A DNA stretch of 64,000 bases from a virus (taxonomy: Duplodnaviria; Heunggongvirae; Uroviricota; Caudoviricetes): IMG/VR virus record IMGVR_UViG_3300046507_000426; one strand, written 5' to 3'. Both the position numbers and the translations under genes were made by a program. Positions 4,621 through 64,000 of the stretch are shown one piece after another. The notes below the pieces were generated by a model. It did not search any database. It saw only the letters and a program-made list of their open reading frames with translations, and had not been told where the DNA came from. How positions within the stretch are numbered: the first letter of the stretch is position 1; every line of letters begins with the position of its first letter.

Positions 4621-5484
4621 TCACTCGCCTTCGAGAATCGCTTTGATACCACTTATCGTTGTACGACAACCGGCTGAGTTAGGATGGCCACCACCACCGT
4701 ACTTCTTGGCAATTGCACTGACATCAACGCCTGAGCCCTGTTTTGAGCGTAGTGACAGAATCACTGTGTTGTCATTGAGTACAAACCAACATACACCGAC
4801 GTCAACGTTCAGCGTTTCATCAGAGTACATCGCATGGCCCATCTCTGACACAAGCTGACCCGTGTTCAGAAAACCACACTTGTAACCTTCCCAGTTTACA
4901 ACCTTGACATTACGTGGCACTTGAGCTTCGACCGCTGCCTGATCACGTTCAAGAAGGATTTCACCAGTATCCACAAGGTCTTGTAGAACATTCTCATTAG
5001 ACGCGTATTTGTTCCAAAGAGGCATGTTGCCTTTTAATGTTCCAAGGCCAGCATGAATAAGTTTGCTGTCATTCCCGAACTTGAACTTCCAAAGATCTCG
5101 ATCTTGAACATATTGCAATAGCATCGGAACCGAATCATCGGGATGAAAGTAGTTCCATGCAATTACAGCCCCGCTCCGTTCCATGTCAAACACGACTTCG
5201 ACCTTGGGATGATTACAGCCCTCCAGAGCCTCTCGTGCGGTCTGATGATGGTCGAGTACCACAACCTTGCCACAAGCCTCTCCAAGGGCCTCTAATTCAG
5301 TCCTAGAGGTACTGTAGTCCAGAAAGAATACTTCAGTTTCTGATCCACGTTCAAAATCAGGCAAAGGCTTACCGTACTGACAGGCTAAATAAATAGCCTT
5401 ATCCCCGAACTTTTTCCATGCTGCATATTTGCTGCCGGTACCATCCATGCAGTCTTTGTGATAGAGAATTACTGTGTTTGTCAT
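4621..5484 (-). CDS. DHH/DHHA1 family phosphoesterase (NrnA-like nanoRNase / pAp phosphatase-like)
   Basis: 287 aa; N-terminal DHH-like region (LYHKDCMDG...), C-terminal DHHA1 GGGH motif (KKYGGGGHPNSAG). Confidence 0.6.
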   Translation of the reverse strand: MTNTVILYHKDCMDGTGSKYAAWKKFGDKAIYLACQYGKPLPDFERGSETEVFFLDYSTSRTELEALGEACGKVVVLDHHQTAREALEGCNHPKVEVVFDMERSGAVIAWNYFHPDDSVPMLLQYVQDRDLWKFKFGNDSKLIHAGLGTLKGNMPLWNKYASNENVLQDLVDTGEILLERDQAAVEAQVPRNVKVVNWEGYKCGFLNTGQLVSEMGHAMYSDETLNVDVGVCWFVLNDNTVILSLRSKQGSGVDVSAIAKKYGGGGHPNSAGCRTTISGIKAILEGE

Positions 5485-6263
5485 ATCGAAACATGGTCCG
5501 AGTCTGAGGCGATAACTTCGCCGTTATAGGAAACTTCAATTTCTACTTCAACTTCGCCGTCACTGTGATCGATAGAAATGCGAATGTCGAGATTTCGCAA
5601 GGCTTCAGCCAGGATGTTTTTAACCATGTCAGCAGTTACCGGAGGGTTATGCTGATCCATTTGAATCGTTGTTTGATTCGGGCTTACTTGCCAGGTACCT
5701 CCAAGCCCCGGCGTCATCGTGACGTAAGGTGTATTGTTTATTGACATATGATCCGTTACCCATTGAGTAGCCGAAGTCTGGTTTAGGACATACTCATTTT
5801 GAAGTCGCTCTGCCTCTTGTCTTAGGGCTGGAACATCTCCCGGATCCCAGTTGAACTGGTAAGTACCGGTGTTAGCCATTCCTGAGTTAAATGTAATTGG
5901 AGGATCTTCTCTGCCTTGAGCCCTTCGTCTTTGTGCTTCCTGCTCTCTTAGGCGATCTGCCTGTCTTTGGTTCCACTGTGCCATATCTCTTTCTAACTCT
6001 CTTATGTATTCTCTAGCTATTCCTGAGATAGCCCCTTGATTCAAGTAGAACGTATCAAGAGACACCTGAACTACTCTATGGGACCTTTCCCCATAAGGAG
6101 GCTGAACTACGATTTCTATCTCTTCCGCAAACACTGAGGCATGAGAAGGCCTGCGGATTACCGAGCTGAGAGTCCAGCCGTATTGAACACACAGTTCATA
6201 AGATCTAGCCTGTACCTCTGCTAGTAGTTGATCAATTGCAATATTTGGGTTTGATATAGCCAT
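5481..6263 (-). CDS. Hypothetical protein (start moved to internal ATG)
   Basis: Track ORF begins at a TTG at 6326; first ATG (MAISNPN...) is at 6263, which puts the TTGGTATAAG promoter (6289-6298) upstream instead of inside the ORF. Confidence 0.45.
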   Translation of the reverse strand: MAISNPNIAIDQLLAEVQARSYELCVQYGWTLSSVIRRPSHASVFAEEIEIVVQPPYGERSHRVVQVSLDTFYLNQGAISGIAREYIRELERDMAQWNQRQADRLREQEAQRRRAQGREDPPITFNSGMANTGTYQFNWDPGDVPALRQEAERLQNEYVLNQTSATQWVTDHMSINNTPYVTMTPGLGGTWQVSPNQTTIQMDQHNPPVTADMVKNILAEALRNLDIRISIDHSDGEVEVEIEVSYNGEVIASDSDHVSI

Positions 6264-6288
6264 AAACGGCCTCTGTCTGTACGTCAGC

Positions 6289-6298
6289 CTTATACCAA
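6289..6298 (-). promoter_or_regulatory. Extended -10 promoter motif TTGGTATAAG (minus strand)
   Basis: One of 17 or more intergenic copies of plus-strand CTTATACCA(A), each upstream of a minus-strand gene. Confidence 0.5.
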
Positions 6299-6307
6299 CA
6301 ATGCCAG

Positions 6308-6626
6308 AAAAACTGGACAAACACAAAAACCCGCAAAGCCTTACCCAGCTTGGCTTTCAGAGCTTCGTGTCCAATTTGTCCAAAAAATAAAATGAAACTG
6401 GACAACCGCAAACCTATGTCCAGCTTGGGTTTCAGAGGATTTGTCCAATTGTCCAGAAAAAATTTTCAACCATACCTCACTTTCTAATTGAGTCACACAT
6501 CTTTTTACAAAACCCACAATACCTCTCTTATATATAAATATATTTTTTAAAAAGTTCAAATATTATATATATATAAGACCCCCGGATTCCTAGACACTGA
6601 GGGTAAACCCTATGTTTTTATTTTCT
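6308..6626. repeat. Copy A of 316+ bp near-identical direct repeat (copy B at 63685-64000) containing TGGACAA/TTGTCCA iterons and an AT-rich core
   Basis: Direct alignment of 6308-6626 with 63685-64000 gives about 96% identity; contains ttgtccaatttgtcc, tttgtccaattgtccag, and tatatataaatatattttttaaaaagttcaaatattatatatatataag. Confidence 0.85.
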
Positions 6627-6664
6627 AGTAAATTTATTGTGAAAAAGGAAGTGAGGTATGGTTG
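6467..6664. repeat. 14-bp perfect inverted repeat (CAACCATACCTCAC ... GTGAGGTATGGTTG) flanking a ~170 bp AT-rich core
   Basis: 6467-6480 caaccatacctcac and 6651-6664 gtgaggtatggttg are exact reverse complements; the AT-rich tract lies between them. Confidence 0.7.
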
Positions 6665-6830
6665 AGAAAAAAAACTGGACAATTGGACAAATCGTCTAGA
6701 ACTCAAGCCCGATAAGGCTTTGCGGCTGTCCAATAGTGCAAAGTGAAATTGGACAAATTGGACACGTAGCCAGCAAACCCAATACCAGTAAGGCTTTCAG
6801 AGATTTGGGATTTGTCCAGTTTTTTCAAAG
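6660..6830. repeat. Continuation of iteron array (paired TGGACAA repeats) downstream of repeat copy A
   Basis: actggacaattggacaaatcg, ggctgtccaatag, aaattggacaaattggacacg, atttgtccag; 12 or more copies of the 7-mer in about 550 bp. Confidence 0.6.
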
Positions 6831-6831
6831 C

Positions 6832-6863
6832 TAAAAAAAGCCGAGTCGAAACCCGGCCTTTTG
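6832..6863 (-). terminator. Rho-independent terminator (bidirectional-type)
   Basis: aaaaaaaGCCGAGtcgaaacCCGGCcttttg; a near-identical element recurs at 18571-18602. Confidence 0.5.
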
Positions 6864-6864
6864 A

Positions 6865-7104
6865 CTAGCGAACCATGACCTTCATGAGCAACGCTTCCAT
6901 TTCCTTCCTGGAAGAGTCTTGAAGTTCAAGTTGCTTTGAGAAGTTCTTTTGCAAACTTTCGGATGCTGCCTCGACAGACTTCTCAAGGTCTTTCATGCCA
7001 AGCTCAAGCAGCTCTAACTGCTGAGTCACCGTAAGAGCCTTCAGATACTCTTGAAACTCTTCTCTGCTCAATTTCTTGAGCGATTCGTAATCTTCTTCTC
7101 TCAC
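6865..7104 (-). CDS. Hypothetical coiled-coil protein (79 aa)
   Basis: ORF, charged/helical composition, stop TAG. Confidence 0.4.
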   Translation of the reverse strand: MREEDYESLKKLSREEFQEYLKALTVTQQLELLELGMKDLEKSVEAASESLQKNFSKQLELQDSSRKEMEALLMKVMVR

Positions 7105-7116
7105 GTTGACTCCTTG

Positions 7117-8739
7117 TTAGATACGTCCAGCTATAAATTCAGACATGAAACGCGGCGTCTGCGTATCGAAGCCCACAACATCAAGCATGTTCGGATCCTT
7201 GGGATCTGCGATGCTGAAGTCATTGACTGCCATACCGACTACGATCAGCTTTGCATCAGGCTTGTTCATGCCTTGGCGATACTTTTGCATGGCTTGGAAC
7301 GGATGCTGTCTACCAGCATACGTCTCGTTGTCCGTATAGATACAGAACGCATCCACGTTCCAACGGTGTGCAAGCGCATGTTCAGCAGGCAAAGCACAGT
7401 TCGTAGAACCGAAGTTCCAGTCATGCGCCTTGGTGGTAGCCGATTCAAGCGTATCGTGCTTCGTGATGTTCAGCGGCTTGAACGTCTTAGCGAAGCCCAA
7501 CACTTCAGTCCAAGGTTCCGTACGAGCCGAAACCATAGCCATCAGTGCAGCACCTTCACAACACGTCAACTGCGGAACACCCGGAATAGCCGAACCCATT
7601 GAACCTGACACGTCAAGCGCCAGAACAATATTCTTACCAGACGGTTCCACCGCGTCGAACGAAAGGTAGAACGCCGCTTCAAGCGTATCCTTGACGGTAT
7701 TATCCGGGGTCCAAACCAGCGAACCCTTATCGCCCTTGCCTTGAGAGTAGATCTTCTTAGCAACGATAATCGACATCGGATGCAGACGTTCCTTACGAAG
7801 CTGTTCCACATCCAGAAGCTTGGTCGTGACCAGCTTACTCGTTTCCGAGAAAGGCTTGATCAGTCCAACAGCCGTCAGCTTGTTCAGGTTACGAACCAAT
7901 GCATTCAGGCCCATATGCGGAACGAGTGCTTCCCAAATCTTCGGGTCATTCTTTTGCTCATTAGGGATCATTTCATGCGTCAGCTTGTGATCCTGAATCA
8001 GGTTGACAAGTGCGCTGCCGCTAGCAGTCTTGGCTTCTTCAACTGCAATCAGAAGCTCAGGAACCTGGTCACCCAGAGCAAGTGCTTCCGGACCCTTCAC
8101 GATGTACTTGTAAAGGTTTTGACGAACCGTGTCTTCACCAGGCTTCACATGCGACAGACGCATAACGTCCTTGTGCGACCAACCATCACGTTGCTTGTAC
8201 TTCACAACCTGATAGGCGAGATTCGTCACAGTCTTGTCCGCATACCACTTCTGTGCAACGTTCTTAAGCGAACGACCCCAACCTCTAAGTCCATTCGCAA
8301 ATGCAACGAAGTGCAGGAAGTGCGTGCCAGTACGAGCCACGAGGTTCACTTTGTCCTTGGCATACAGTTTCGTAGCCACGTCACCGTGAGTGAAGACCAA
8401 CGCCATAGCAAGCAACGCGTAGTCATTGTTCTTGGCACGACCAGCCTGGCTGATCTCAACGATACGGTCGACCACAACCTTACCATTCGTTTGGATCAAC
8501 TTGACGATATCGTCGACCTTGGCCTTGGTGATATCTTTCTCGGACTGATAGAACGTACCACCGCTCGTACCGATGATCAGGAAACGATCGAGCTTCTGCA
8601 GAGGCGTTACCTCAAACACAAAGCCGCCAGCGTTGTTCTTTACTTGAGCGACAGAAGCATTACCAGCCGGTTTGGTCTGAACCGTAGTCTTTGCTTGAGT
8701 GCGGGTGTTGGTATTGTTAGAGAGGGAATTGAAAGACAT
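7117..8739 (-). CDS. rsr: Ro60/Rsr orthologue (TROVE domain plus C-terminal vWA/MIDAS domain)
   Basis: 540 aa; the N-terminal region matches the TROVE domain as I remember it; C-terminal NIVLALDVSGSMGS (DxSGS MIDAS motif) is vWA-like; domain order and size match Ro60/Rsr. Confidence 0.75.
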   Translation of the reverse strand: MSFNSLSNNTNTRTQAKTTVQTKPAGNASVAQVKNNAGGFVFEVTPLQKLDRFLIIGTSGGTFYQSEKDITKAKVDDIVKLIQTNGKVVVDRIVEISQAGRAKNNDYALLAMALVFTHGDVATKLYAKDKVNLVARTGTHFLHFVAFANGLRGWGRSLKNVAQKWYADKTVTNLAYQVVKYKQRDGWSHKDVMRLSHVKPGEDTVRQNLYKYIVKGPEALALGDQVPELLIAVEEAKTASGSALVNLIQDHKLTHEMIPNEQKNDPKIWEALVPHMGLNALVRNLNKLTAVGLIKPFSETSKLVTTKLLDVEQLRKERLHPMSIIVAKKIYSQGKGDKGSLVWTPDNTVKDTLEAAFYLSFDAVEPSGKNIVLALDVSGSMGSAIPGVPQLTCCEGAALMAMVSARTEPWTEVLGFAKTFKPLNITKHDTLESATTKAHDWNFGSTNCALPAEHALAHRWNVDAFCIYTDNETYAGRQHPFQAMQKYRQGMNKPDAKLIVVGMAVNDFSIADPKDPNMLDVVGFDTQTPRFMSEFIAGRI

Positions 8740-8759: not shown

Positions 8760-9165
8760 AAAGTTTAACTGACTAAAAAAAGAAGGTCTGAAAGCCGAAG
8801 CTAACAGACCTTTGGACTTACCTCATGTGGTGTTAAGAAGAACCATGCTGCAGCTCTTCCCCGGGGTACGACGGGTACCCCCAGCTCGTGCTCCTGGAGC
8901 ACATCCCAGTCAGCGAAGCTGAACCGATATCTGACAGAGTTACTCTATCATCGTTTCATTGAAACAAAATACGTAAGTCTTGGTGTTGCGGGGTTATGAC
9001 CTAACCTCATTGCCCGTTCTGGGGCAGATCTCCTCATCGCCTCCGGGTAGTGCAGCGTAGGTCGTGTAGTGCGAAGCACGTAACGAACGTAGCGGAACGG
9101 ACCGGTGGCAGATTTAACCAGGAAGTTGCTCCCTGACTACCAACATACTACTTGGTTACATACGA
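8760..9165 (-). ncRNA. Structured non-coding region immediately upstream of rsr; candidate Y-RNA-like RNA(s)
   Basis: About 400 bp without ORFs; hairpins GGGGTAC-gacgg-GTACCCC (8869-8890) and GTGCTCC-tgg-AGCAC; a GGTCCG element on the minus strand near 9085; Y RNA genes usually sit next to rsr. Confidence 0.3.
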
Positions 9166-9169
9166 AAGG

Positions 9170-9616
9170 TCATTTTTTACTGCGTCTGTATCTTTTTACA
9201 CAATCTTTACATTGACTGTCTATCCCACTATGTCGGGTTCTGTTTTTCCAAAATTCAGAAATTGGTTTAAACGTTTTACACGAGAAACATTCTTGTTTAC
9301 CATCTACTATATTTTTTCGAGTACTCTCGTAGAATTCTTTTCTAGGTTTATTACATTTGAGATGTGAAAATGCAATGTTGTCTATATCCCAGAATAATTC
9401 AGAACCTACATCTAACCAATCTTTTTTATGCTCAATGCTAAGTTCATTTTCTGTTTCAATATCTTTTGAGCATTTAAAACATATATTTTCTCGGTGTCTG
9501 ACTAATAGAGAAAACATTACTTTTTTTTTGAGCTTATTTGTGGCGGTACCAAACGGCATACCTAACTGTTGTGATTTTTTAGAATTTGAATTAGTTGACA
9601 TGCTAAATACTAGCAA
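9170..9616 (-). CDS. HNH homing endonuclease
   Basis: 148 aa; Cys-rich with SIEHKKDWLD...NIAFSHLKCNKP HNH-type motifs; embedded in the non-coding RNA region. Confidence 0.6.
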   Translation of the reverse strand: MLVFSMSTNSNSKKSQQLGMPFGTATNKLKKKVMFSLLVRHRENICFKCSKDIETENELSIEHKKDWLDVGSELFWDIDNIAFSHLKCNKPRKEFYESTRKNIVDGKQECFSCKTFKPISEFWKNRTRHSGIDSQCKDCVKRYRRSKK

Positions 9617-9729
9617 TGTATAAAACTGAAGTGAGCAAATGAAATTGATCTGGAGGAAATCTTAAAAGGATAATCCAAATCTGAACGGCTCACAAACTTG
9701 AAGCTGAACAAAGAGTGTACTGCGCGTTT

Positions 9730-10430
9730 TACGCGTTATACCAGTTTAACTACAGCACAACCAAGAACACAGAATGCTCTTAATTGTGCCGTCAGGATTC
9801 GAACCTGAAATACGTCCTGATAATGGAGATAACACAATACTAGCGGTTCAGCATAAACGGAAGACGAACAAGAGGTGCAAGGGAGATGGTCTTTCGACCT
9901 AACAGTTTTCACCAATTGAAGTTTGTAGATAACCCTACGCTTTCGGTTCGTCGTGAAACTTGATACGAGCAAGGATTGTCAAGGAGATGCAGGCTTCACC
10001 CGCGATAGCTTTAGCTCAAGCAGAGTACAACGGTGTTAGACCTAGGTACTATTCCGTTTCCGGAAACTGCGTAGTACGCTTTATTCTAACTTTGGCTTAG
10101 TAGATAACCTTGAACATTCGGCTCGTGAAACTGATATGGGCAAAGGGTTGAAATGGAATTGGAGGCGGCTGTCTTTACCAATTTGACTAAACCCAACTTA
10201 ATGGGTTACAGGACTCGAACCTGTATATCGCTGCTTGGGGTTAACCCATTTCTACGGCCCATGAACTTTAATTCCAAAACAGTCAATACGACTGCTTCAG
10301 GATTAAAGCGGGAAGTGAACAAAAAGCATAACTAGGAGGTTCTTAGCAATAGATAACCTAGTTAAATACGGCTCACTAAATCTATTATACCACTAAAACG
10401 AAATTTATTGAAAGAGCAAGTTTATGAACT
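9730..10430 (-). ncRNA. Cluster of 2-3 paralogous non-coding RNA units with tRNA-like modules (acceptor-like stem plus canonical T-arm, D-arm-like hairpin); candidate Y-RNA-like (Yrl) RNAs
   Basis: Minus-strand T-arms TCAGG-TTCGAAT-CCTGA (plus 9794-9810) closed by ATTGTG/CACAAT, and ACAGG-TTCGAGT-CCTGT (plus 10219-10235) closed by ATGGGTT/AACCCAT, the latter followed by a D-arm-like GTC-AAATTGGTAAA-GAC; conserved box TAGATAACC...(T)TCGG(C/T)TCG/AC...GAAAC at three sites (about 9926, 10101, 10351); no ORFs over about 1.3 kb (9620-10930). Confidence 0.4.
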
Positions 10431-11286: not shown

Positions 11287-11550
11287 TTACTCAACTTCGA
11301 GTTCACGTTGCAGAAGATCATCCGGCGTGACATTTGCCACATTAGCAATCTTCACGATTGTAGCAATGTTCGGACGATAGTTACCAGCGAGAGCACCGAG
11401 ACGTGCATATTGTTCAATACGCTTGAGCGTCGACACCGACAGCTTGGTTGCTGCGGCCATGTCAGCAAAACTGATGTTGCTTTCTTGACGAAGAGTGGTT
11501 GCGTTGCGAACGAAAGTACGGGCTGCTGCTTGAAGAGAAATAGTAGACAT
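11287..11550 (-). CDS. XRE-family helix-turn-helix transcriptional regulator
   Basis: 87 aa; ISFADMAAATKLSVSTLKRIE is a typical Cro/CI-type HTH. Confidence 0.6.
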   Translation of the reverse strand: MSTISLQAAARTFVRNATTLRQESNISFADMAAATKLSVSTLKRIEQYARLGALAGNYRPNIATIVKIANVANVTPDDLLQRELEVE

Positions 11551-16641: not shown

Positions 16642-16651
16642 CTTATACCAA
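16642..16651 (-). promoter_or_regulatory. TTGGTATAAG extended -10 promoter
   Basis: Plus cttataccaa upstream of 15835..16617. Confidence 0.45.
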
Positions 16652-24595: not shown

Positions 24596-24672
24596 GGTTA
24601 CCTCTTTGACTTGTAAGTAGGAGTGAGAGTCGCCTCTGTTATAGGTATAGTGTCCAACTTATTTCCATTATT

Positions 24673-24681
24673 CTTATACCA
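24673..24681 (-). promoter_or_regulatory. TTGGTATAAG promoter
   Basis: Plus cttatacca. Confidence 0.45.
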
Positions 24682-24768
24682 AATAACATCTTGGACAATC
24701 AAAAAAAAGGTGCTCAGAAATCGAGCACCAAAAGGAGGGAACCACGAACAGCTACAACTCCAGCAAAA

Positions 24769-26300: not shown

Positions 26301-26478
26301 ATTATGTGGTAGGGCTACAGGGTACTGACCCCTATTCTACGGATTAAAAGTCCGTTGCTTCACCTTAAAGCTTTAACCCCACAAATGAAAGCTAGTATAC
26401 ATTGCTTTGAGAAGACCCACAAGGAGTCTTTCCAAAACAAGCTAGGCTCCTTGTGAGAGCCCAGCCGTTTACTTACGC

Positions 26479-28075: not shown

Positions 28076-28600
28076 CTACTTGGTTGTGTTTAACTGCTCA
28101 TGCACTTCTCGATGACAATTTGAACAAAGCAAATCACATTTATCTAATTCTCTCTTCAAAATATCATCTAATTTTCTATACCATTGTTTGGCAATTCCAA
28201 AATCTTTCTCTTTAGGATCTCTGTGGTGAAACTCTAAGGCAGCATGAGATTTATTGTATCCACACAGTTGGCATTTACCGCCTTTATATTCAACTGCCGA
28301 ACTTTTAGTATTTACTCTTATTTCCTTTAAGTGATTTGAAATACAACTTTTACACGAAGTTCTATATCGTTCTGTATTTTTTATTTTTTGAAATTCCGTA
28401 ATAGGAAATTCAAGTTTGCAAGTAGAGCATCTTCTCCAATCAGGTTTCCCTTCAACTTTTAAATATGAAAAAGTCGATGTTTTAAGATCGTGTTTATAAA
28501 GATGGTATCTGATACTAGATTGGCTAACTCCAAAATGGGCCGCGATTTTTCTAGTTGACCATCCTTCTTTAGTCATCTGTTCAAGTTCTTGTTTTGTCAT
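28076..28600 (-). CDS. HNH homing endonuclease (HTH plus Zn-ribbon plus HNH)
   Basis: LEFHHRDPKEKDF...CDLLCSNCHREVH; paralogue of 38183..38728. Confidence 0.7.
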   Translation of the reverse strand: MTKQELEQMTKEGWSTRKIAAHFGVSQSSIRYHLYKHDLKTSTFSYLKVEGKPDWRRCSTCKLEFPITEFQKIKNTERYRTSCKSCISNHLKEIRVNTKSSAVEYKGGKCQLCGYNKSHAALEFHHRDPKEKDFGIAKQWYRKLDDILKRELDKCDLLCSNCHREVHEQLNTTK

Positions 28601-29359: not shown

Positions 29360-29728
29360 TTACAAACAGCGGTCAATGACTCGGGCGATCTTCTTGAAGC
29401 TGAGTTGGTCAGTGTCGTTCAACGTAGAAAGCTTAGTTTCTTTCCCACGATACGTGACTTTGACATCGGTCGGTACATCAGCCGAGTCCAAAACAGAAGG
29501 ATTGAGTCCAGCCCATTCAGCTACCGCCAGGGGAAGCAAGCCACTAGCGCCCATATATTCGTCTGGCCAGGGTTCTTTCGCCGCAACTTCAGGATGTTCC
29601 TGAGCATGGATGTTGCATAGAACGCCGAGGCAACAGAAACCTTCGTCGTCACGCAACGCACCCGTAGTCTGTTTGTAATCACCGCCGCGCAGTGCCTTGA
29701 TCCATTTGTTCTTGATACGCTTTTTCAT
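29360..29728 (-). CDS. Paralogue 6 of tandem six-gene family (conserved termini, variable core)
   Basis: MKKRIKNKWIKALRSGDYKQ...FCCLGVLCNIH...LSFKKIARVIDRCL. Confidence 0.55.
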   Translation of the reverse strand: MKKRIKNKWIKALRGGDYKQTTGALRDDEGFCCLGVLCNIHAQEHPEVAAKEPWPDEYMGASGLLPLAVAEWAGLNPSVLDSADVPTDVKVTYRGKETKLSTLNDTDQLSFKKIARVIDRCL

Positions 29729-30081
29729 AGTTGTGCTTCGATGAGATCAGCTAGTTGGTTGAAAGAAAATTGCTTGATGTCGTTAAGAACAGAAATATGA
29801 GTTCTCCATTCTTTTGGATAAGCCAGCGAAGCTGGTTGACGCATGTACGGGTTGTTTTCTTCCAAACCCGCCCACTCTTTTACATGATCAGGTAATTCTC
29901 CCGCGATGCTTTCAAACGATTGCTCGCAGTTTAGTTCCTTGTCATGCAAATCACAGAGAACACCAAGACAGCAAAACTTGGGATCTATACCTTCATAAAC
30001 AGTTTTGAGTCTGGTTAAACCCTGTTTGTATTCACCGCTCCGAAGAGCGGCTACCCATTTGGCTTTGACTTCGTTGTTCAC
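29725..30081 (-). CDS. Paralogue 5 of tandem family
   Basis: MNNEVKAKWVAALRSGEYKQ...FCCLGVLCDLH...FSFNQLADLIEAQL. Confidence 0.55.
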   Translation of the reverse strand: MNNEVKAKWVAALRSGEYKQGLTRLKTVYEGIDPKFCCLGVLCDLHDKELNCEQSFESIAGELPDHVKEWAGLEENNPYMRQPASLAYPKEWRTHISVLNDIKQFSFNQLADLIEAQL

Positions 30082-30434
30082 AGTGCGTATTGAATGATGT
30101 CAGCGATTTGAGAAAATGGCAGACCCGAGTCGTTTAGATCTACAAGCGAAACAGAGTCAGTAGTCGGAGTCTCTACGCCAGTGTATCCGAGGTCACTTCC
30201 AAGCTCAGACCATTCTCTAACTTCAATAGGAGGAACGGAATAACCATTGAGCATATGCTTTTCCGGACCTCTTTCTTCTCTGTCAACCCATTCAACTCCG
30301 GTTTCTTTGCCATACAGGTCACAAAGAACGCCTAGGCAACAGAACCCACTAGGACCATTCAGAAATGCATGGCCTTGTTTATACTCTCCGCTGCGAAGCG
30401 CAGCTACCCACTTGGCTTTGATTTCTTGGTTCAT
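30078..30434 (-). CDS. Paralogue 4 of tandem family
   Basis: MNQEIKAKWVAALRSGEYKQ...FCCLGVLCDLY...LPFSQIADIIQYAL. Confidence 0.55.
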   Translation of the reverse strand: MNQEIKAKWVAALRSGEYKQGHAFLNGPSGFCCLGVLCDLYGKETGVEWVDREERGPEKHMLNGYSVPPIEVREWSELGSDLGYTGVETPTTDSVSLVDLNDSGLPFSQIADIIQYAL

Positions 30435-30790
30435 AGTGCGAATTGAATCACGTCAGCGATTTGGTTAAAAGTGAATCCGGAATCGTTAAGAACTGTGAGT
30501 TCCTCAGTTATTCCATCGCGGTTTTTAATATCATTGAGGTATCCGGTTCTGGAGGGAAAACCGGACCAGTCCTGGACTTGGGTAGGAGGAGTACCGATTC
30601 TGTCCAGAAAGATAAACTCTGGCTTGTTATCCTTTTCAGGAACCCATTCAGTTTCAGTATCCTTGGCGTAAATATCGCAGAGGACTCCGAGACAGCAGAA
30701 TCCCTCGTCATTACGCAAGCAATTTTTGGTTTGAGCATACTCACCGCTGCGAAGCGCAGCTACCCACTTGGCTTTGATTTCTTGGTTCAT
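30431..30790 (-). CDS. Paralogue 3 of tandem family
   Basis: MNQEIKAKWVAALRSGEYAQ...FCCLGVLCDIY...FTFNQIADVIQFAL. Confidence 0.55.
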   Translation of the reverse strand: MNQEIKAKWVAALRSGEYAQTKNCLRNDEGFCCLGVLCDIYAKDTETEWVPEKDNKPEFIFLDRIGTPPTQVQDWSGFPSRTGYLNDIKNRDGITEELTVLNDSGFTFNQIADVIQFAL

Positions 30791-31143
30791 TAGAAGAAGT
30801 ACTCGATAACGTCAGCGATTTGAGAAAAGGTGAATTCACCGGAGTCGTTCAGGCTTACCAAGCCTTCCCCATCCCCTTCTCTGGTAAGCAAACCAGGAAC
30901 GAGAGAAGTTTCTGCGAATTCAGCCCAATTAAGAGTTACTTGAGGGGGATACCCCCCACAGCGTTCAACCTCTTGAATCCCAGAGCCAGCATGTTCCCAT
31001 TGCGGACCTCCTTCCTTTGCGTGAACATCGGAAAGGACTCCGAGGCAACAGAACCCATCGTCTCTTTTCAAGTAGCCGACGCTCTGTTTGTACTCACCGC
31101 TGCGAAGCGCAGCTACCCACTTTGCTTTGATTTCTTGGTTCAT
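30790..31143 (-). CDS. Paralogue 2 of tandem family
   Basis: MNQEIKAKWVAALRSGEYKQ...FCCLGVLSDVH...FTFSQIADVIEYFF. Confidence 0.55.
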   Translation of the reverse strand: MNQEIKAKWVAALRSGEYKQSVGYLKRDDGFCCLGVLSDVHAKEGGPQWEHAGSGIQEVERCGGYPPQVTLNWAEFAETSLVPGLLTREGDGEGLVSLNDSGEFTFSQIADVIEYFF

Positions 31144-31556
31144 AGCGTGAATTGAATAACGTCAGCAATCTGGTTGAAGGTAAGCCCACCGTCGTTGAGT
31201 TCGGCCAAAGAATACCCCAAGTAGCCAGGGGTATCTTCAAAGGACTTTGTAAATCCCTGGTAAATTCCAGTATTGGGATTTTCCTTGTCGAGATCGGCCC
31301 ATTTCATAACACTAGCAGGAGGTACAACTTCTGACCCTTCAAATGTACCAATGGAAGTATACTTTTGCAAAACCCTGCTATCTTCCTCCTTAGCGGTTCT
31401 CGGCACCCATTCACCTTCTCCAGTTTTCTTCATGTAAAGATCACAGAGAACGCCAAGACAACACATGCCGCCGTCACCGTTCAAGACATGTTTGGCTTGT
31501 TTGTATTCGCCGCTACGCAGAGCAGAGATCCATTCCTGTTTGATTTCGTTGTTCAT
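31140..31556 (-). CDS. Paralogue 1 of tandem family (start at internal ATG MNNEIKQEW)
   Basis: MNNEIKQEWISALRSGEYKQ...MCCLGVLCDLY...LTFNQIADVIQFTL; longer variable core. Confidence 0.5.
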   Translation of the reverse strand: MNNEIKQEWISALRSGEYKQAKHVLNGDGGMCCLGVLCDLYMKKTGEGEWVPRTAKEEDSRVLQKYTSIGTFEGSEVVPPASVMKWADLDKENPNTGIYQGFTKSFEDTPGYLGYSLAELNDGGLTFNQIADVIQFTL

Positions 31557-31720
31557 TTCGTTACTCCGAGTTTTGCTGTTAGTAGAACGCAGGTGAATCC
31601 AACTACGACACACATGACGTAGCCTGCGAATTTAAGGGTATTACGGCGACGCATTTTGACCAACCAAAAAAGAGAGATGCAGAATTAAAGGCTACTTCTT
31701 ATACAACTCTCTTATACCAA

Positions 31721-38072: not shown

Positions 38073-38142
38073 TAACAAAAGGGGGATACGAGCCCCCAGC
38101 CTCACAAGAGTATGTGCGCTCTACCAATTGAGCTATTTTGTT
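38073..38142 (-). ncRNA. tRNA-like RNA with canonical acceptor, D- and T-arms but a 6-nt anticodon loop
   Basis: Acceptor AACAAAA/TTTTGTT, D-arm GCTC-AATTGGTA-GAGC, T-arm GGGGG-CTCGTAT-CCCCC, anticodon region CACA-TACTCT-TGTG. Confidence 0.35.
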
Positions 38143-38182: not shown

Positions 38183-38728
38183 TCAATCTAGTTTAATGAG
38201 TCCTGCATGAACCTCACGGTGACAATTGGAACACAGTAAAGCACATTTATCTAATTCTGTAAATAAATCTTTGTCATTTAAAGTAGCGTCTCGTCCGTAT
38301 CTAGAAATAAGAAAGTCTTTTTCTTTAGGATCTAAATGATGAAATTCTAAAGCGCCTTCATATTTGTCGTATCCGCAACACTGGCATTTATTACCTTTAT
38401 AATCTAAGGCCTGTTTTTTAATACTATTTTTAGCTGCATAGTTTTGTTGCTTTACACACGCTTTGCAATAAGAGCCGGGTTTTTCTTTACCAGATATAAC
38501 AACTTTTCTAAATTCAAAAACAGATTTTTCTAATTTGCAAGAGCGGCAAATTTTAGTTTTTAATTGTTCATACGAAACGTATGAATCGTACTTTTGGGCA
38601 AGCTGGGTTTTAATACCCAGTTTTTTCATGTAGTACTTTACTTTATGAATTGAACAGCCAAGATGTTCACTCATTTCTTTGGCTGTCAATCCCATATCTA
38701 TCAAGGGTTGAAGTATGTCAGAGTTCAT
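38183..38728 (-). CDS. HNH homing endonuclease (HTH plus Zn-ribbon plus HNH)
   Basis: LEFHHLDPKEKDF...CALLCSNCHREVH; paralogue of 28076..28600. Confidence 0.7.
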   Translation of the reverse strand: MNSDILQPLIDMGLTAKEMSEHLGCSIHKVKYYMKKLGIKTQLAQKYDSYVSYEQLKTKICRSCKLEKSVFEFRKVVISGKEKPGSYCKACVKQQNYAAKNSIKKQALDYKGNKCQCCGYDKYEGALEFHHLDPKEKDFLISRYGRDATLNDKDLFTELDKCALLCSNCHREVHAGLIKLD

Positions 38729-39440: not shown

Positions 39441-39516
39441 TGGTAGGAACATCGGGGCTCGAACCCGAGACCTTCAGATTTAGAATCCGCTGCTCTGCCA
39501 ACTGAGCTATATTCCC
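39441..39516 (-). tRNA. tRNA with anticodon CTA (putative amber suppressor)
   Basis: Acceptor GGGAATA/TGTTCCT, D-arm GCTC-AGTTGGCA-GAGC, A26, anticodon arm GCGGA-TTCTAAA-TCTGA (U33, anticodon C34-U35-A36, A37), T-arm TCGGG-TTCGAGC-CCCGA, A73-CCA. Confidence 0.5.
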
Positions 39517-42250: not shown

Positions 42251-42255
42251 GTGTG

Positions 42256-42580
42256 GACAAAAGTTTAGCGACATTGTCCAGGTCGTAACGGCCATACCCC
42301 CCCGCAGATCTAATCCCTGAACGGAATGTCTGTTTAACTTCTGGCAGTGAGCTTTAACGCTCAGCGTCTAGAATTGGGATGCCGAGAATTTACGTCACTC
42401 GGGCCTGACGTTTCCCATGTACGAGGGAGCGATCCGTATGGGGTACTGCGCAACCTAACGGAGGAGGTTCTTTGTAGTAGCCCTGGTGCGCTAAACACTG
42501 GTCTCGGCTTTACGCTGTTCCAAGCGTGGCTACCTAATTCTGGCTGCTTTCTTTATCAGGTAGCAGCAGACCTGTAGTAA
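42256..42580 (-). ncRNA. About 325-nt structured non-coding region between tRNA-Thr and tRNA-Cys (unassigned RNA candidate)
   Basis: No credible ORF; multiple hairpins (GAGCGTTAAAGCTC, CGCTTGGAACAGCG, CCGAGaatttacgtcaCTCGG, G7 run); does not fold as tRNA. Confidence 0.3.
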
Positions 42581-52098: not shown

Positions 52099-54522
52099 TT
52101 ACAAACGCGGATCCAGCGTCTTTTCTTCATTCAGTTGCGAGATCATTTTCACAACCAGTTCAGTCAGAGCAGGGCCATTGTCTGCTGTCAGCATTGCCAG
52201 TGCAAGATCGTGTTCCTTGATAGAAACCTTCAGCTTACCGCCGACACGTTTTTGACGACACAGGGCTTCATAACGGTTCTTGTAATCATAGCCATACACA
52301 AGAGTCAGGTAATTTTCATTCCGAACCTTCATATACGGTGCAACATCTGCCGTACCGTCAAGAGGCTTGATTACAAGGCCTTCCATCTTTTCATCAACGG
52401 TTTTACAGTTGAAGAAAGTCTTTGCATTTTCCAAAACCTCTTTATCGTTTTCAAGGTCGATGATTACGATGTCGTCCTGGTTAACCAAGTCAAAGGAATC
52501 TGCAATCTGGAATTTGTCACCAAACACCTTACCGTCAACCTTCAGAATAGAGAACGCACTGTATTCCGGACGGCTTTCCTGAGCATAAATATCAAGGGTT
52601 TCGCCGAATATCTTCAGATCAACCTGACGAGCTTCGACGTCGATTTTTGCCTTGAATCCCAACTTGGCAAATTCCTCATCGTTAGCCAATGCATCCAGTT
52701 CGTAATGTACCAAACCTTCATACGCACGGAACTGTTCGTCAACCAGACTTTTACCAAGGGTCGTCCACGGCAGAAGTTCACCGTCAAGAATCAGTTCTTC
52801 TTGCCAGAAGTCAATACTTTCCCCTTCGTACTTAGCAAGCAATTCCTGAATCATAACGGTGAGGTCTTCTGTCATGCGAATCTTAAAGCCATTACGAGAA
52901 ACCAGGAAACACTCTTCCGGTTTACCGCGATACAGATATGCCTGACAACGTGAACCCATGTACTTCGGTTGAAGCATGACCCGCTTCGTTCCACGACTTT
53001 TGAAATACTCAAGTCCAGCTTCAAGACTTTCGATTTCAGTGTTAGTCGACGGAGCAGGGGCCATCGTTCCTGAAATGTACTGAACTCGGTTTGCGATAGT
53101 ACGCTTCAGAAATCTCATATCTTCCGGCGACAGTTTGTAGTCGTAGATATTGAACGACTTCTGCGGAGGTGCTATCGGAGTCGTCAAGAAGTTCTGAAGA
53201 CCCTTGTGAACTGTTACCTTTTCAGCTGCCTGAACCGAATCAAACCAGTAACGATTTCCTTTATAACAGAAAGCAGTAAGCTTGCCGCCATAAACAGCCC
53301 CAGTATCGAGAAACACCTTGTTACGATGTTCCAGTTTGGCTGCATTGTGAGCAACGTGCCCAAACACATGCAAAGGAAAATTCCCAACAGCTTCCTTGAA
53401 AATAAACTCATAAGCCTTCCGGTAGTCTTCTTTTCGATCACCGTACAGATTGCGCTGAGCCTTAAGTGCTGCAGAATTCATCTTACCCAAATACTTCTGC
53501 TCGCACGGAGCATGGGTTACGTAAACTGTACGGACTTGGTTGCCGTGAATCTTCAAGAACGGAACAGAACAGCGATCGAACAAGTCCACAAGCTCTGCTG
53601 CCAACGTTTCGTCTTTCAACAGAACGTCAAGCGAACTCATGTACTTCGATTCCATCTCCAGATCAGGATTTTTGATTTCACCCTTGATACGCTTCACCGC
53701 ATACGACTCGTGATTGCCGTGGAGAATAATGCCACCGTCGGTGTGAAACTTCCTGGCGAAGGCAATTGCTTTGGCAGTATCATTGCCTTTGTCAATGTAA
53801 TCACCGACAAGAACATTGATGCTATTTGCACCGACCTTAGCTACAAGCTGTTCAGCAGCTTCCGTGTGTTCATGTACATCTCCGATGATATTCACCTGCA
53901 TGTCTCGACCAAGATAGAGCTGAGTAGCTGCGTATTTGCCCAAATCTTCGATTTCAACTTCCAGATCTATCCACTTTTTGGCGTCTCGTTCACGGATACG
54001 AATACAATCATCGTGATCTTTACGACCGAGATTCGGAAGGACGCTTTGTTTGAATCGCTTGGCGCTCGATTCTACAACCCGTTTTTCTTCCTCATTCGAT
54101 TCCGACCAGTACTGATAGTTCGGATATTCAAACGTAATCAATTCAGTACGATATTCGTTTTCTTCAGCGAGTTTACGAATTTCCTTTCGAAACGTATCAT
54201 TCATACCAGTAGTATCAACGATTACGAATTCACTGTTGATCGGGAACGCAATCGCCGCTTTAAACTTCGCCATCATCACGTTGAAAGCTGCTTCCGAAGC
54301 TTCCATCATGACCGGGGCGTAACGATGGAGACTCAAATCATCCAAGACGTTCATTCGTTCAGCATCAGAATTCAAGTTTACAACCTTCGAACCTGCAGCA
54401 AGTCCTGCTTTCATCAACTGAAAGTTCAACGCAAGTTCGAACTGTTTCGAGAATGTGGTTTTACCGCACATCGAAGGGCCAACCAAAATGAAGACTGTGT
54501 GGAGTTTAGTTTGAATTTTCAT
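52099..54522 (-). CDS. pnkp: Bacterial-type polynucleotide kinase-phosphatase with C-terminal ligase domain (Pnkp)
   Basis: 807 aa; N-terminal P-loop GPSMCGKTT (kinase); central metallophosphoesterase motifs IIGDVHEH...GDYIDKGND...LHGNHESY; C-terminal nucleotidyltransferase/ligase KVDG motif (SILKVDGKV). Confidence 0.75.
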   Translation of the reverse strand: MKIQTKLHTVFILVGPSMCGKTTFSKQFELALNFQLMKAGLAAGSKVVNLNSDAERMNVLDDLSLHRYAPVMMEASEAAFNVMMAKFKAAIAFPINSEFVIVDTTGMNDTFRKEIRKLAEENEYRTELITFEYPNYQYWSESNEEEKRVVESSAKRFKQSVLPNLGRKDHDDCIRIRERDAKKWIDLEVEIEDLGKYAATQLYLGRDMQVNIIGDVHEHTEAAEQLVAKVGANSINVLVGDYIDKGNDTAKAIAFARKFHTDGGIILHGNHESYAVKRIKGEIKNPDLEMESKYMSSLDVLLKDETLAAELVDLFDRCSVPFLKIHGNQVRTVYVTHAPCEQKYLGKMNSAALKAQRNLYGDRKEDYRKAYEFIFKEAVGNFPLHVFGHVAHNAAKLEHRNKVFLDTGAVYGGKLTAFCYKGNRYWFDSVQAAEKVTVHKGLQNFLTTPIAPPQKSFNIYDYKLSPEDMRFLKRTIANRVQYISGTMAPAPSTNTEIESLEAGLEYFKSRGTKRVMLQPKYMGSRCQAYLYRGKPEECFLVSRNGFKIRMTEDLTVMIQELLAKYEGESIDFWQEELILDGELLPWTTLGKSLVDEQFRAYEGLVHYELDALANDEEFAKLGFKAKIDVEARQVDLKIFGETLDIYAQESRPEYSAFSILKVDGKVFGDKFQIADSFDLVNQDDIVIIDLENDKEVLENAKTFFNCKTVDEKMEGLVIKPLDGTADVAPYMKVRNENYLTLVYGYDYKNRYEALCRQKRVGGKLKVSIKEHDLALAMLTADNGPALTELVVKMISQLNEEKTLDPRL

Positions 54523-54531
54523 TGTTGATCC

Positions 54532-63651: not shown

Positions 63652-63660
63652 CTTATACCA
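63652..63660 (-). promoter_or_regulatory. TTGGTATAAG promoter
   Basis: Plus cttatacca. Confidence 0.45.
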
Positions 63661-63684
63661 AAAGAGGACCTGAATGATGACTTT

Positions 63685-64000
63685 AAAAAAACTGGACAAA
63701 CCCAAAAACCCGCAAAGCCTTACCCAGCTTGGCTTTCAGAGCTTCGTGTCCAATTTGTCCAAAAAATAAAATGAAACTGGACAGCCGCAAAGCCTTATCC
63801 AGCTTGGGTTTCAGAGGATTTGTCCAATTGTCCAGAAAAAATTTTCAACCATACCTCACTTTCTAATTGAGTAACACATCTTTTTACAAAACCCACAATA
63901 CCTCTCTTATATATAAATATATTTTTTAAAAAGTTCAAATATTATATATATATAAGACCCCCGGATTCTTAGACTCTAGGTGTAAACCCTATGTTTTTAT
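63685..64000. repeat. Copy B of the 316+ bp direct repeat (iterons plus AT-rich core), truncated by window end
   Basis: About 96% identical to 6308-6626 by direct alignment. Confidence 0.85.

Follow-up and report, generated by a model that had tools for sequence, protein, structure and literature searches.

Positions 6308 to 6863 of the 64,000-nt stretch of tailed-phage DNA analyzed here (IMG/VR record IMGVR_UViG_3300046507_000426; hereafter, the window) lie between an operon that starts with the gene at 5481 to 6263 (minus strand) and the upstream Ro60 operon (7117 to 8739 and 6865 to 7104). This region holds a noncoding imperfect palindrome of ~540 bp (copy A), in which an AT-rich center is placed between mirrored arrays of short boxes. 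Its order is two box-bearing modules, a 14-bp repeat, the AT core, the 14-bp repeat again, and two mirrored modules. The outer left module (6308 to 6388) has a TGGACA box at 6314 (plus strand), a conserved interior of the form AAAGCC-N11-GGCTTT at 6331 to 6362, and a tandem pair of TGTCCA boxes at 6368 and 6377 (both minus), while the inner left module (6389 to 6466) has a box at 6399 (plus), an interior at 6406 to 6437, and a core-side tandem pair at 6442 and 6450 (both minus). To the right of the core, the inner module (6665 to 6745) carries a core-side tandem pair at 6676 and 6684 (both plus), an inverted interior at 6695 to 6725, and a box at 6727 (minus), and the outer module (6746 to 6830) carries a tandem pair at 6750 and 6759 (both plus), an interior at 6771 to 6802, and a box at 6813 (minus). 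The outer modules mirror each other with 76% complementarity (arms 6308 to 6383 and 6749 to 6824), and the inner ones with 78% over 87 nt (arms 6399 to 6485 and 6646 to 6732). Tandem boxes are 8 to 10 bp apart, and single boxes stand 43 to 63 bp outward of the core-adjoining tandem pairs, which face each other in mirror orientation; the box array of this lineage is TGGACAATTGGACAA. The original prediction had described repeated boxes and modules here and overlooked the large palindrome that they form.

Other parts of that description were largely borne out. A perfect 14-bp inverted repeat (CAACCATACCTCAC at 6467 to 6480 and GTGAGGTATGGTTG at 6651 to 6664, both read from the sequence) brackets the core at 6481 to 6650, which contains the invariant motifs TAGGGTT and GGGGGT and a 54-nt AT block at 6525 to 6578. 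This block, which corresponds to the AT tract noted earlier, is itself an imperfect palindrome centered on TTTTTTAAAAA; its G+C content is 9%, compared with 26% for the core as well as for its interior (6486 to 6645) and 46% for the window. The 32-nt module CCGCAAAGCCTTACCCAGCTTGGCTTTCAGAG is present in the three direct copies reported earlier and in a fourth, inverted copy at 6695 to 6725 that had been missed. The count of at least 12 TGGACAA/TTGTCCA 7-mers was too high, since only 9 exact matches fall within 6308 to 6863; the hexamer core TGGACA/TGTCCA occurs 13 times in the ~520 bp of the element, compared with 28 times in the remaining 63 kb of the window (both copies excluded), an enrichment of ~50-fold. 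Over the whole window, the 7-mer was observed 24 times, compared with 9.65 ± 2.9 times in shuffled sequences, and none of 100 shuffles reached at least 24. A cluster of repeated short boxes with an adjoining AT-rich region, as expected of an iteron origin, can thus be recognized in the sequence. Isolated box pairs also occur elsewhere in the window, at 24651/24692 and 42254/42275; ~0.5 such pairs would be expected by chance, so that little weight was placed on them.

Both borders of the element carry transcription signals. On the left, a promoter-like extended −10 site read from the sequence, TTGGTATAAG (6289 to 6298, minus strand), would serve the operon starting with the gene at 5481 to 6263; it adjoins the element and probably lies outside its core function. 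On the right, the intrinsic terminator of the Ro60 operon (6835 to 6862, minus strand), a 12-pair stem followed by a T run, is kept in related contigs and shields the element from read-through.

A second copy (copy B, 63687 to 64000) lies 57,379 bp away in direct orientation and is cut by the window end after the outer and inner left modules, the 14-bp repeat (63846 to 63859), and the start of the core, with the AT block at ~63904 to 63957. The duplication had been given as 6308 to 6626 and 63685 to 64000 at ~96% identity, which agrees with 96% for an ungapped alignment of 6308 to 6607 with 63687 to 63986; a gapped alignment extending to the window end gives 94.5% over 326 columns. The promoter-like site TTGGTATAAG was also found beside this copy, as predicted (63652 to 63661, minus strand), where it would serve a Thg1-like gene (62665 to 63504, minus strand). 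The repeat indeed runs on beyond the window, as had been suspected: related contigs show a complete B copy of ~550 to 650 bp between primase/HU and Thg1/PolA, followed by different genes. Two direct copies 57,379 bp apart, the second reaching the window end, might be taken for the direct terminal repeat of a linear genome or for an assembly concatemer. The former had been named in the original prediction as the scenario that would overturn it. Such an origin of the repeat was rejected as vanishingly improbable, however, as the likeness begins abruptly at 6308 and 63687, the left flanks of the copies are unrelated (47% alike over 108 nt), only ~0.5 kb is repeated with no other duplication across the 57 kb, both copies are internal, and relatives hold not only the complete B copy with different genes beyond it but also a third, inverted copy.

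Copies in related metagenomic phages

Related metagenomic phages carry the element at both of these sites and at a third one. Counting copies in relatives, a check proposed with the original prediction, gave three in each of contigs 000371 and 000237, with A and B direct and C inverted. Positions are conserved across contigs: copy A follows Ro60, copy B precedes Thg1, and copy C lies between divergent operons. Taking contig 000371 as a complete, circularly permuted genome, the gaps between copies are 46, 59, and 76 kb (P = 0.055). Scans of related contigs found neither empty sites nor extra copies. In the search for a fourth copy, a three-phased-box scan gave mostly unrelated sequences among the matches listed, and a core-pattern scan recovered the known copies and one partial copy (the A copy of contig 000526, L142, cut by the contig end). 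Scans of metagenomes for further copies yielded nothing new, their one match (L152) being a chance occurrence inside a gene.

Across 14 copies (9 contigs), no variation was found in the boxes, in the 14-bp repeat (including its CCATACCTCAC part), or in 52 nt of the AT block, while the module interiors diverge. Several B copies have exchanged their interiors for a perfect IHF consensus (AATCAAAGACTTA and similar sequences), which occupies the same four sites in mirrored orientation; this consensus occurs only once in the whole 64-kb window, whose own copies have the AAAGCC-N11-GGCTTT motif instead. Some arms drop the hairpin partner yet retain the boxes (relative L017). Judging from these alignments, the constraint acts on the DNA sequence rather than on structure or coding. 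Copies within a genome can also resemble each other beyond their orthologs, as 237_B resembles 237_C and 371_A resembles 371_C.

Homologous elements in cultured phages

Homologous elements with different box sequences are present in two cultured lineages, those of Salmonella phage Arash (five copies) and Vibrio phage D69 (three copies). A DNA similarity search of phages with the element gave no match, and these homologs were detected only through synteny and repeat analysis. The boxes are TGTAACC in Arash (array GGTTACAAAGGTTACA) and TGTAGCAA, TGTTGCAA, and TGTAAC in D69. Common to the lineages are the core-adjoining tandem box pair, an AAASCC...GGSTTT interior, and the core motif AAAAAGT(C/T). 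That the boxes changed while the architecture was kept points to selection, and the same architecture with different boxes is the pattern expected of a coevolving protein-site pair. One copy lies between the primase and PolA genes in all three lineages, across which PolA is only 44 to 48% identical. A tblastn comparison of the open reading frames (ORFs) flanking copies A and B with Arash and D69 showed only HU to be shared. An HU/IHF-family gene is found in all three lineages, and in Arash it lies directly beside one copy, where it is misannotated on the wrong strand.

The copies are spaced at near-equal intervals. In Arash they lie at 26.6, 66.4, 100.2, 138.5, and 173.3 kb, with gaps of 39.8, 33.8, 38.3, 34.8, and 34.2 kb (P = 1.9e-5), and in D69 at 67.5, 125.2, and 185.4 kb, with gaps of 57.7, 60.2, and 68.8 kb (P = 0.005). 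Such spacing (P ~2e-5 and 0.005, respectively) shows selection on the location of the copies along the genome, whatever their function, and selection of this kind is unusual for a phage. A literature search for regularly spaced phage repeats found nothing, and the repeats are not mentioned in the paper on Arash. The five Arash cores are essentially identical, with differing flanks, and all five copies are co-oriented regardless of the direction of neighboring genes; copies differ in orientation in D69 and in the window lineage. The contexts of the copies include codirectional, divergent (copy C), and convergent genes, the last exemplified by the 138.5-kb copy of Arash between gp213 and gp214c, with terminators at the borders. 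The element is thus independent of flanking transcription. Its host group consists of little-studied phages of ~180 kb with 3 to 5 copies per genome.

Candidate functions of the element

Copy A lies downstream of a Ro60/TROVE gene (Pfam E value of 1e-57), ~250 nt away, which raises the question of whether the element is a cluster of small RNA genes. Each 75- to 85-nt module would then encode a hairpin RNA, such as a Y-RNA-like Ro60 partner, that is transcribed outward from the core and terminates in a U run. The size and location of the modules recall the YrlA/YrlB Y RNAs, several modules end in T runs, and their outward-oriented sequences give hairpin folds with z-scores from −1.4 to −2.8. 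On either strand, however, folds are only 1 to 3 SD below shuffled sequences, and there is no sign of covariation. The stems are often broken (of 8 distinct instances of AAASCC-N11-GGSTTT, just 2 can pair at the S positions), and compensatory changes were found in none of 41 predicted pairs of the core (covariation term, +1.74), a comparison of limited power since the core is largely invariant. Unlike Y RNAs, the element has no tRNA-like domain and no GNCGAA motif, and Rfam gave no Y_RNA or YrlA match in 6200 to 6950, even at an E value of 10. Y RNAs are expected upstream of Ro60 on the strand of that gene (PMC4201824), and precisely there, at ~9650 to 10420, are YrlA-like candidates that carry tRNA-like modules and GNCGAA-type motifs (weak YrlA matches at 9735 to 9810 and 10171 to 10225, minus strand). 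Copies B and C and the copies of Arash and D69 that were examined sit between other genes, away from Ro60, and the interiors are replaceable by IHF sites. We therefore consider small RNAs a very improbable explanation, and neither a structured RNA nor a Y RNA that partners the neighboring Ro60 was retained as a candidate. A small terminator hairpin in the core (AGGGTTCACCCT) was also rejected, being broken in the C copies, as was a small peptide following the conserved GAGGTATGG (MVEKKNWTIGQIV and MVENFFWTIGQIL in the arms of the window), whose length and frame vary in relatives (MVFRKK in L001). The element is not coding sequence.

The conserved boxes and core, the lack of hairpin covariation, the IHF-swappable interiors, and the retention of the architecture with other boxes together argue for a DNA-level element that would be bound by protein. 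The original prediction had offered a replication origin or a protein-binding operator array; what these two share is supported, and between them an origin appears to be favored over a plain operator by the 3 to 5 regularly spaced copies, the copy between primase and polymerase genes, and the Arash copy between convergent genes. Its suggestion that a helix-turn-helix protein (11287 to 11550) or host DnaA binds the boxes found no support, and Pfam and PHROGs scans of neighboring ORFs for a box-binding protein gave nothing useful. GC skew, which had been proposed as a check for an origin, has no turning point at any of the copies, being monotonic in the window and flat in Arash; it is uninformative here and, in phages, a weak test.

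An operator role is the likeliest of the alternatives, although we still consider it unlikely. The element could be a hub of transcriptional control, with one or two strong promoters in the invariant AT block (for example, TTGAAC-16/17-TATATA toward the TATAAGAG side), box arrays as operators of a phage repressor or activator, bound protein and IHF/HU bends looping the DNA and also controlling the adjacent TGGTATAAG promoter, and hairpin-plus-T-run modules as terminators or insulators. Every copy in the window lineage adjoins a TGGTATAAG promoter with the outermost box 5 to 30 nt upstream, which fits an operator and counts against an origin; there are ~17 such sites on the minus strand before genes, the adjacent one lying outside the palindrome. 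The isolated box pair at 24651/24692 flanks another promoter, the modules are bordered by A runs and T runs as in bidirectional terminators, and the motifs TATATAAG and TATATTAC are essentially confined to the elements in Arash. The AT block points the same way. An unwinding element normally requires AT-richness alone, so that 52 invariant nucleotides, going beyond AT-richness, suggest additional specific recognition, possibly of a promoter, and suit it better than melting. Against this, a consensus scan found no sigma-70-type site, although the tool demands T at −10 position 6 and the phage uses TATAAG; the TTGAAC-16/17-TATATA arrangement is conserved in the window lineage and not in Arash, and the position and direction of the putative −35 differ between the two. 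C copies have their core in reverse orientation with respect to the promoter beside them. In Arash, the TGGTATAA promoter adjoins only 1 of 5 copies, and the copy between convergent genes has nothing to drive. Nor would regular genome-wide spacing be predicted from a promoter or operator.

Regular spacing could instead serve another genome-wide process, and it counts less firmly toward origins in the window lineage, where it is weaker (P = 0.055) than in Arash and D69. A box-bound phage protein might link the copies physically or serve to load condensation or partition machinery, much as P1 parS has ParB boxes around an IHF bend, to give equal loops for compaction, segregation, packaging, or ejection. 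The spacing in three lineages, the IHF-consensus bends between facing boxes, the HU homolog of all lineages (encoded directly beside one copy in Arash), and the co-orientation of the five Arash copies whatever the direction of neighboring genes would all agree with such an architectural site. We consider it quite unlikely, because copies are not co-oriented in D69 or the window lineage and no ParA, ParB, or SMC match was found among ~45 proteins scanned with Pfam and PHROGs, a set that covers part of the genes of the window. To our knowledge, moreover, a large, strongly AT-rich palindromic center is not among the features of centromere-like sites, and we know of no precedent for an architectural site in lytic tailed phages. 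Less probable still is a selfish or neutral, MITE-like palindromic repeat, or a hot spot of gene conversion or recombination without a dedicated function. The arms do resemble terminal inverted repeats, the cores of any one genome are nearly identical (most clearly in Arash), and nonorthologous copies can outmatch orthologous ones. Yet the positions of the copies are fixed across contigs, and that of the primase-polymerase copy also across lineages; the absence of empty sites or extra copies from our scans, the regular spacing, and the change of boxes within a kept architecture are likewise not what a mobile element would lead us to expect.

Possible replication origins and known systems

Weighing these points, we favor the reading of the elements as a set of homologous phage replication origins, each acting in cis as a DNA site where a nucleoprotein complex would assemble, and we assign it a probability of roughly 0.45, somewhat short of even. 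A phage-encoded, lineage-specific initiator would bind the TGGACA boxes, and the ~35-bp interiors between facing boxes would be bent by a protein of the IHF/HU type, which could be host IHF or the phage HU homolog. Bending would bring the facing boxes together, with each arm wrapped, and the strain might be passed to the 160-bp AT-rich center with its 54-nt block of 9% G+C, which would open and admit the phage primase-helicase and polymerase. In a profile search against the PDB, only the DnaG-type part of the primase-helicase was matched, with nothing downstream; the protein is conserved to its C terminus. With three sites per genome (3 to 5 in related lineages) at roughly equal distances, replication could begin at several places simultaneously. 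With a little more reserve, we extend this reading to a clade of ~180-kb tailed phages (the window phage, Arash, and Vibrio phages D69, D181, and D148), which may replicate from 3 to 5 homologous, regularly spaced origins, each combining initiator boxes, swappable IHF/HU bend modules, and an invariant AT center, with copies homogenized by gene conversion.

Parts of this design are familiar. Lambda ori and P4 ori/crr are iteron origins, and those of P4 have short octamer iterons, direct and inverted, at two separate loci bound by its primase-helicase. In P1 parS, oriC, pSC101, and R6K gamma, boxes for a specific protein stand on both sides of an IHF bend, and one complex touches both. Some copies of the present element resemble P1 parS in having IHF-consensus sites exactly between facing boxes; unlike them, parS is a single site of ~80 bp beside parAB with no AT-rich center, and no par genes were found among the proteins scanned here. 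Like copy B, the HSV oriL has replication genes on either side. The HSV origins oriS and oriL are palindromic and homologous, and the DNA between their boxes is bent by the bound protein (PMC12543377). They share with the present element several redundant copies (three in 152 kb in HSV) and arm boxes around an AT-rich center. HSV is, however, a eukaryotic virus without sequence relation to these phages, its palindrome is ~45 to 144 bp with 2 to 3 boxes rather than 13 to 20 boxes and bend modules, regular spacing is undescribed for its origins, and UL9 binds there, whereas we infer the function here. SPP1 has two homologous origins, oriL and oriR, with repeats bound by one phage initiator and an AT-rich unwinding element (PMC6316719), and here too one origin lies within the replication module. 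Its direct repeats are on one side of the unwinding element instead of in a mirror-symmetric array, the AT center of the window element differs in being sequence invariant, and the two SPP1 copies are 13 kb apart, not evenly spaced, with a known initiator, gp38. Archaeal ORB-DUE-ORB origins place an AT-rich unwinding element between repeated, often inverted boxes, with several origins in some species (PMC5333045). Those multiple origins are usually not homologous to one another, and the initiator Orc1/Cdc6 is encoded beside the archaeal origin, whereas no such gene was seen here.

If these elements are origins, the phages would be the first group known with several homologous, evenly spaced origins, a layout otherwise linked to archaeal and eukaryotic chromosomes and to herpesviruses, and their genomes would have an evenly partitioned, multireplicon design undescribed for any phage. 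It would also imply an initiator whose DNA specificity shifted between lineages while the architecture of its site stayed fixed. Because cultures exist of Arash (host, Salmonella Typhimurium ATCC 14028) and of the Vibrio phages, the question is directly testable. In the current annotation of Arash and D69, the elements appear as small hypothetical genes.

A large imperfect palindrome with paired boxes

The repeated element at 6308-6830 (copy A) is, as a whole, a single large imperfect palindrome, a feature absent from the original prediction. From the left, an outer module (6308-6388) and an inner module (6389-6466) lead to one arm of a 14-bp inverted repeat (6467-6480), and beyond the AT core (6481-6650) the second arm (6651-6664) is followed by the right-hand inner (6665-6745) and outer (6746-6830) modules. 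Every module carries a tandem pair of boxes (TGGACA/TGTCCA, the hexamer core of TGGACAA/TTGTCCA) on its core-proximal side and a single facing box 43 to 63 bp apart, and the conserved interior between the facing boxes is CCGCAAAGCCTTACCCAGCTTGGCTTTCAGAG or a variant. The upstream operon ends in an intrinsic terminator (6835-6862) that forms the right border, and the left border is an extended -10 site on the minus strand, TTGGTATAAG (6289-6298), one of ~17 minus-strand sites preceding genes. These promoter-like sites have the consensus tTGGTATAAGag (e.g., at 16647, 18549, 24678, 31716, 38176, 46144, and 55907), and the same motif occurs 24 times in Salmonella phage Arash, as TGGTATAA, on one strand only.

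The predicted duplication was confirmed, with 96% ungapped identity between 6308-6607 and 63687-63986, as were the perfect inverted repeat and the AT tract, which at 6525-6578 has 9% G+C compared with 46% for the window. A gapped alignment of copy A with copy B (63687-64000) gave 94.5% identity over 326 columns, reaching the window end. Over the 108 nt preceding the copies on the left, identity is only 47%, which gives the repeat a sharp left border. A terminal repeat is excluded. The 7-mer occurs 24 times in the window, compared with 9.65 ± 2.9 in shuffles; its predicted clustering stands, but the count of at least 12 was slightly high, with 9 exact 7-mers in 6308-6863. The hexamer core occurs 13 times in that interval and 28 times in the remaining 63 kb, and copy B, cut short by the window end, contributes 6. 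Two isolated inverted TGGACA pairs lie outside the elements (~0.5 such pairs expected by chance): one (24651-24697) brackets the ThyX operon's TGGTATAAG promoter, and the other (42254-42280) is a 7-bp hairpin directly after tRNA-Thr.

The minus-strand gene directly upstream of copy A (7117-8739) encodes an orthologue of Ro60/TROVE (Pfam E value, 1e-57). Because Y RNAs, encoded nearby, are partners of Ro60 proteins (PMC4201824), we tested the modules as Y RNAs. This reading was rejected: Rfam gave no match to Y_RNA or YrlA in 6200-6950, even at an E value of 10, and YrlA-like candidates lie upstream of Ro60. The latter are weak matches on the Ro60 strand (9735-9810, 23 bits; 10171-10225, 19 bits). 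They have the typical tRNA-like T-arm/D-arm module and lie inside a set of four repeats, each with GAGCCG(A/T).. and then GGTTATC. The likely partners of Ro60 are the putative Y RNAs of this cluster (9650-10420, minus strand) and not the element. Between the Ro60 start and an HNH-endonuclease ORF (9170-9616), ~400 nt (8780-9170, minus strand) are G+C rich and apparently structured, without a convincing ORF; an Rfam scan of this stretch matched no family.

A structured-RNA reading of the element was also rejected. Module folds were only 1 to 3 standard deviations better than shuffles on either strand, none of 41 predicted core pairs showed compensatory change in an alignment of eight distinct cores, and the variable S position of AAASCC-N11-GGSTTT was paired in two of eight distinct instances. 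In the third (C) copies of related contigs, the small hairpin AGGGTTCACCCT is disrupted, and in one B-copy arm (L017) the boxes that would close the hairpins are gone but the remaining boxes are retained. Short peptides from the conserved GAGGTATGG were rejected because the ORFs are not conserved among relatives. The failed RNA and coding tests indicate that the constraint acts on double-stranded DNA sequence.

Copies and spacing in three phage lineages

Ro60 was found at 74 to 76% identity in six viral contigs, with the element directly downstream in all six. Where a contig has the Thg1-like gene, a second, complete copy precedes it, and this copy in turn follows genes for a DnaG-type primase-helicase and an HU-family protein as well as unknown ORFs. 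A pattern scan for both 14-bp arms recovered a third copy, C, which lies between divergent operons in the orientation opposite to that of A and B. The original prediction had raised the question of one or two copies in relatives; there are more, with three each in contigs 000371 (181 kb; ~67.6, 113.9, and 172.8 kb) and 000237 (8.6, 67.4, and 115.8 kb). The boxes, CCATACCTCACTT, GTGAGGTATGG, TAGGGTT, GGGGGT, and a 52-nt AT block are invariant in 14 copies, among which the module interiors diverge. Additional outer arrays occur in some copies, with three to five boxes in exact 10-bp phase (e.g., TGGACActttTGGACAaaacTGGACA). Copy B of 000237 resembles its copy C, and copy A of 000371 resembles its copy C; within-genome likeness can thus exceed that of orthologues, which indicates probable gene conversion among copies of one genome.

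By PolA, the closest cultured phages are Arash (48%) and Vibrio phages D69, D181, and D148 (44%). A DNA search of the phage collection with the window element gave no match. Arash and D69 have an element of the same layout between primase and polymerase genes: a terminator, boxes, an AAASCC...GGSTTT interior, a tandem box pair, an AT core (TATATA runs and an AAAAAGT(C/T) motif), and mirrored boxes. The boxes are TGTAACC/GGTTACA in Arash and TGTAGCAA, TGTTGCAA, and TGTAAC in D69. In genomes assembled from fetched pieces, Arash (180.8 kb) has five co-oriented copies at 26.6, 66.4, 100.2, 138.5, and 173.3 kb (gaps of 39.8, 33.8, 38.3, 34.8, and 34.2 kb), and D69 (186.7 kb) has three at 67.5, 125.2, and 185.4 kb, the middle one inverted (gaps of 57.7, 60.2, and 68.8 kb). 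If the copies were placed at random on a circle, a smallest gap as large as the one observed would arise with a probability of 1.9e-5 in Arash, 0.005 in D69, and 0.055 in contig 000371. Elements are annotated as small hypothetical proteins (Arash gp115c and gp171c; D69 VPHD69_0230-0232 and 0322-0323).

Several contigs have B copies in which another sequence takes the place of the interiors, at all four of their positions and with mirrored orientation. The replacements (AATCAAAGACTTA, AATCAAACACTTA, AATCAAGAGCTTA, and others) match perfectly the IHF consensus WATCAANNNNTTR, which occurs once in the whole 64-kb window. Replacement at these positions points to the space between facing boxes as a place of DNA bending, where a bending protein would act; the window's AAAGCC-N11-GGCTTT interiors presumably form an alternative bend site. 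An HU/IHF-family protein is encoded in phage of the window's lineage, and all three lineages have an HU homologue, which in Arash (66,702-66,977, plus strand) is unannotated and adjoins the 66.4-kb copy. Within the Arash locus OQ632216.1, 66,382-66,977 (L026), that gene has its own promoter and ribosome-binding site; the record instead annotates gp116c, which overlaps the repeat element and runs on the other strand.

Candidate origins and alternative explanations

The data define a cis-acting site for a putative nucleoprotein complex. In this reading, the boxes would be recognized by a lineage-specific protein, the DNA between facing boxes would be bent by bending proteins, and the AT-rich centre would lie between the arms, so that binding could lead to unwinding and initiation. 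A set of homologous replication origins is the best explanation, at a probability of roughly 45%, given the layout of known origins, the conserved copy between primase and polymerase genes, and the regular spacing. Matching layouts are found in SPP1 oriL/oriR, with repeats and an unwinding element in two copies served by one initiator (PMC6316719); in archaeal ORB-DUE-ORB origins (PMC5333045); and in the three palindromic origins of HSV, with a binding protein that bends the DNA between its sites (PMC12543377). The origin proposed originally gains from these points, but neither a PDB profile search of the primase-helicase nor a comparison of ORFs flanking copies with Arash and D69 identified an initiator. 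GC skew of the window and Arash was uninformative on origins, and an invariant AT block suggests that it is specifically recognized and not only melted; all three points count against an origin.

A promoter/operator hub is a doubtful alternative. TGGTATAAG promoters abut copies in the window's lineage, and TTGAAC-16/17-TATATA is conserved there, but the inverted C copies, the copy spacing, and Arash weaken this explanation; one Arash copy lies between the convergent genes gp213 and gp214c, suggesting that the element acts on its own and not only via a neighbouring promoter. Anchors for genome architecture or partition are less probable still, a selfish or recombinogenic repeat is improbable, and small RNA genes are hardly probable at all. 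Replication origins of the iteron-plus-AT type are already known; three things appear undescribed: large mirror-symmetric sites that form a family and have interchangeable modules of the IHF type, three to five homologous copies kept almost evenly spaced around a phage genome, and a conserved architecture carrying lineage-specific boxes. Since Arash and the Vibrio phages are cultured, the origin claim is directly testable.

Gene content of the window

A Thg1-like gene lies directly downstream of copy B, with polymerase genes after it. The window, which is phage DNA, encodes PolA and a separate UDG/exonuclease, ribonucleotide reductase, Pnkp, Hen1, the Thg1-like enzyme, and NAD salvage enzymes. 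ARAGORN found 20 tRNA genes and missed 2 found by Rfam (38073-38142 and 26310-26380); the tRNA at 39441-39516 (minus strand; anticodon CTA), labelled "Pyl" by ARAGORN, is probably an amber suppressor. In addition to these >20 tRNA genes, the phage has a set of genes for RNA repair and surveillance that is unusually complete (4621-5484, 7117-8739, 52099-55833, and 62665-63504), comprising Ro60, Pnkp kinase-phosphatase-ligase with Hen1, Thg1-like tRNA-His guanylyltransferase, and a DHH phosphoesterase. Both the window (6865-7104, minus strand) and contig 000526 (L003) have a 79-amino-acid ORF between Ro60 and the element; it is absent in the remaining related contigs, where Ro60 directly precedes the element. 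Five or six tandem paralogous ORFs of ~118 amino acids each occupy 29360-31613 (minus strand) with a period of 353 to 356 nt. Segments at 28099-28310 and 38206-38423, 10.1 kb apart, are 71 to 85% identical over 53 and 112 nt and may be paralogous genes or regulatory regions.
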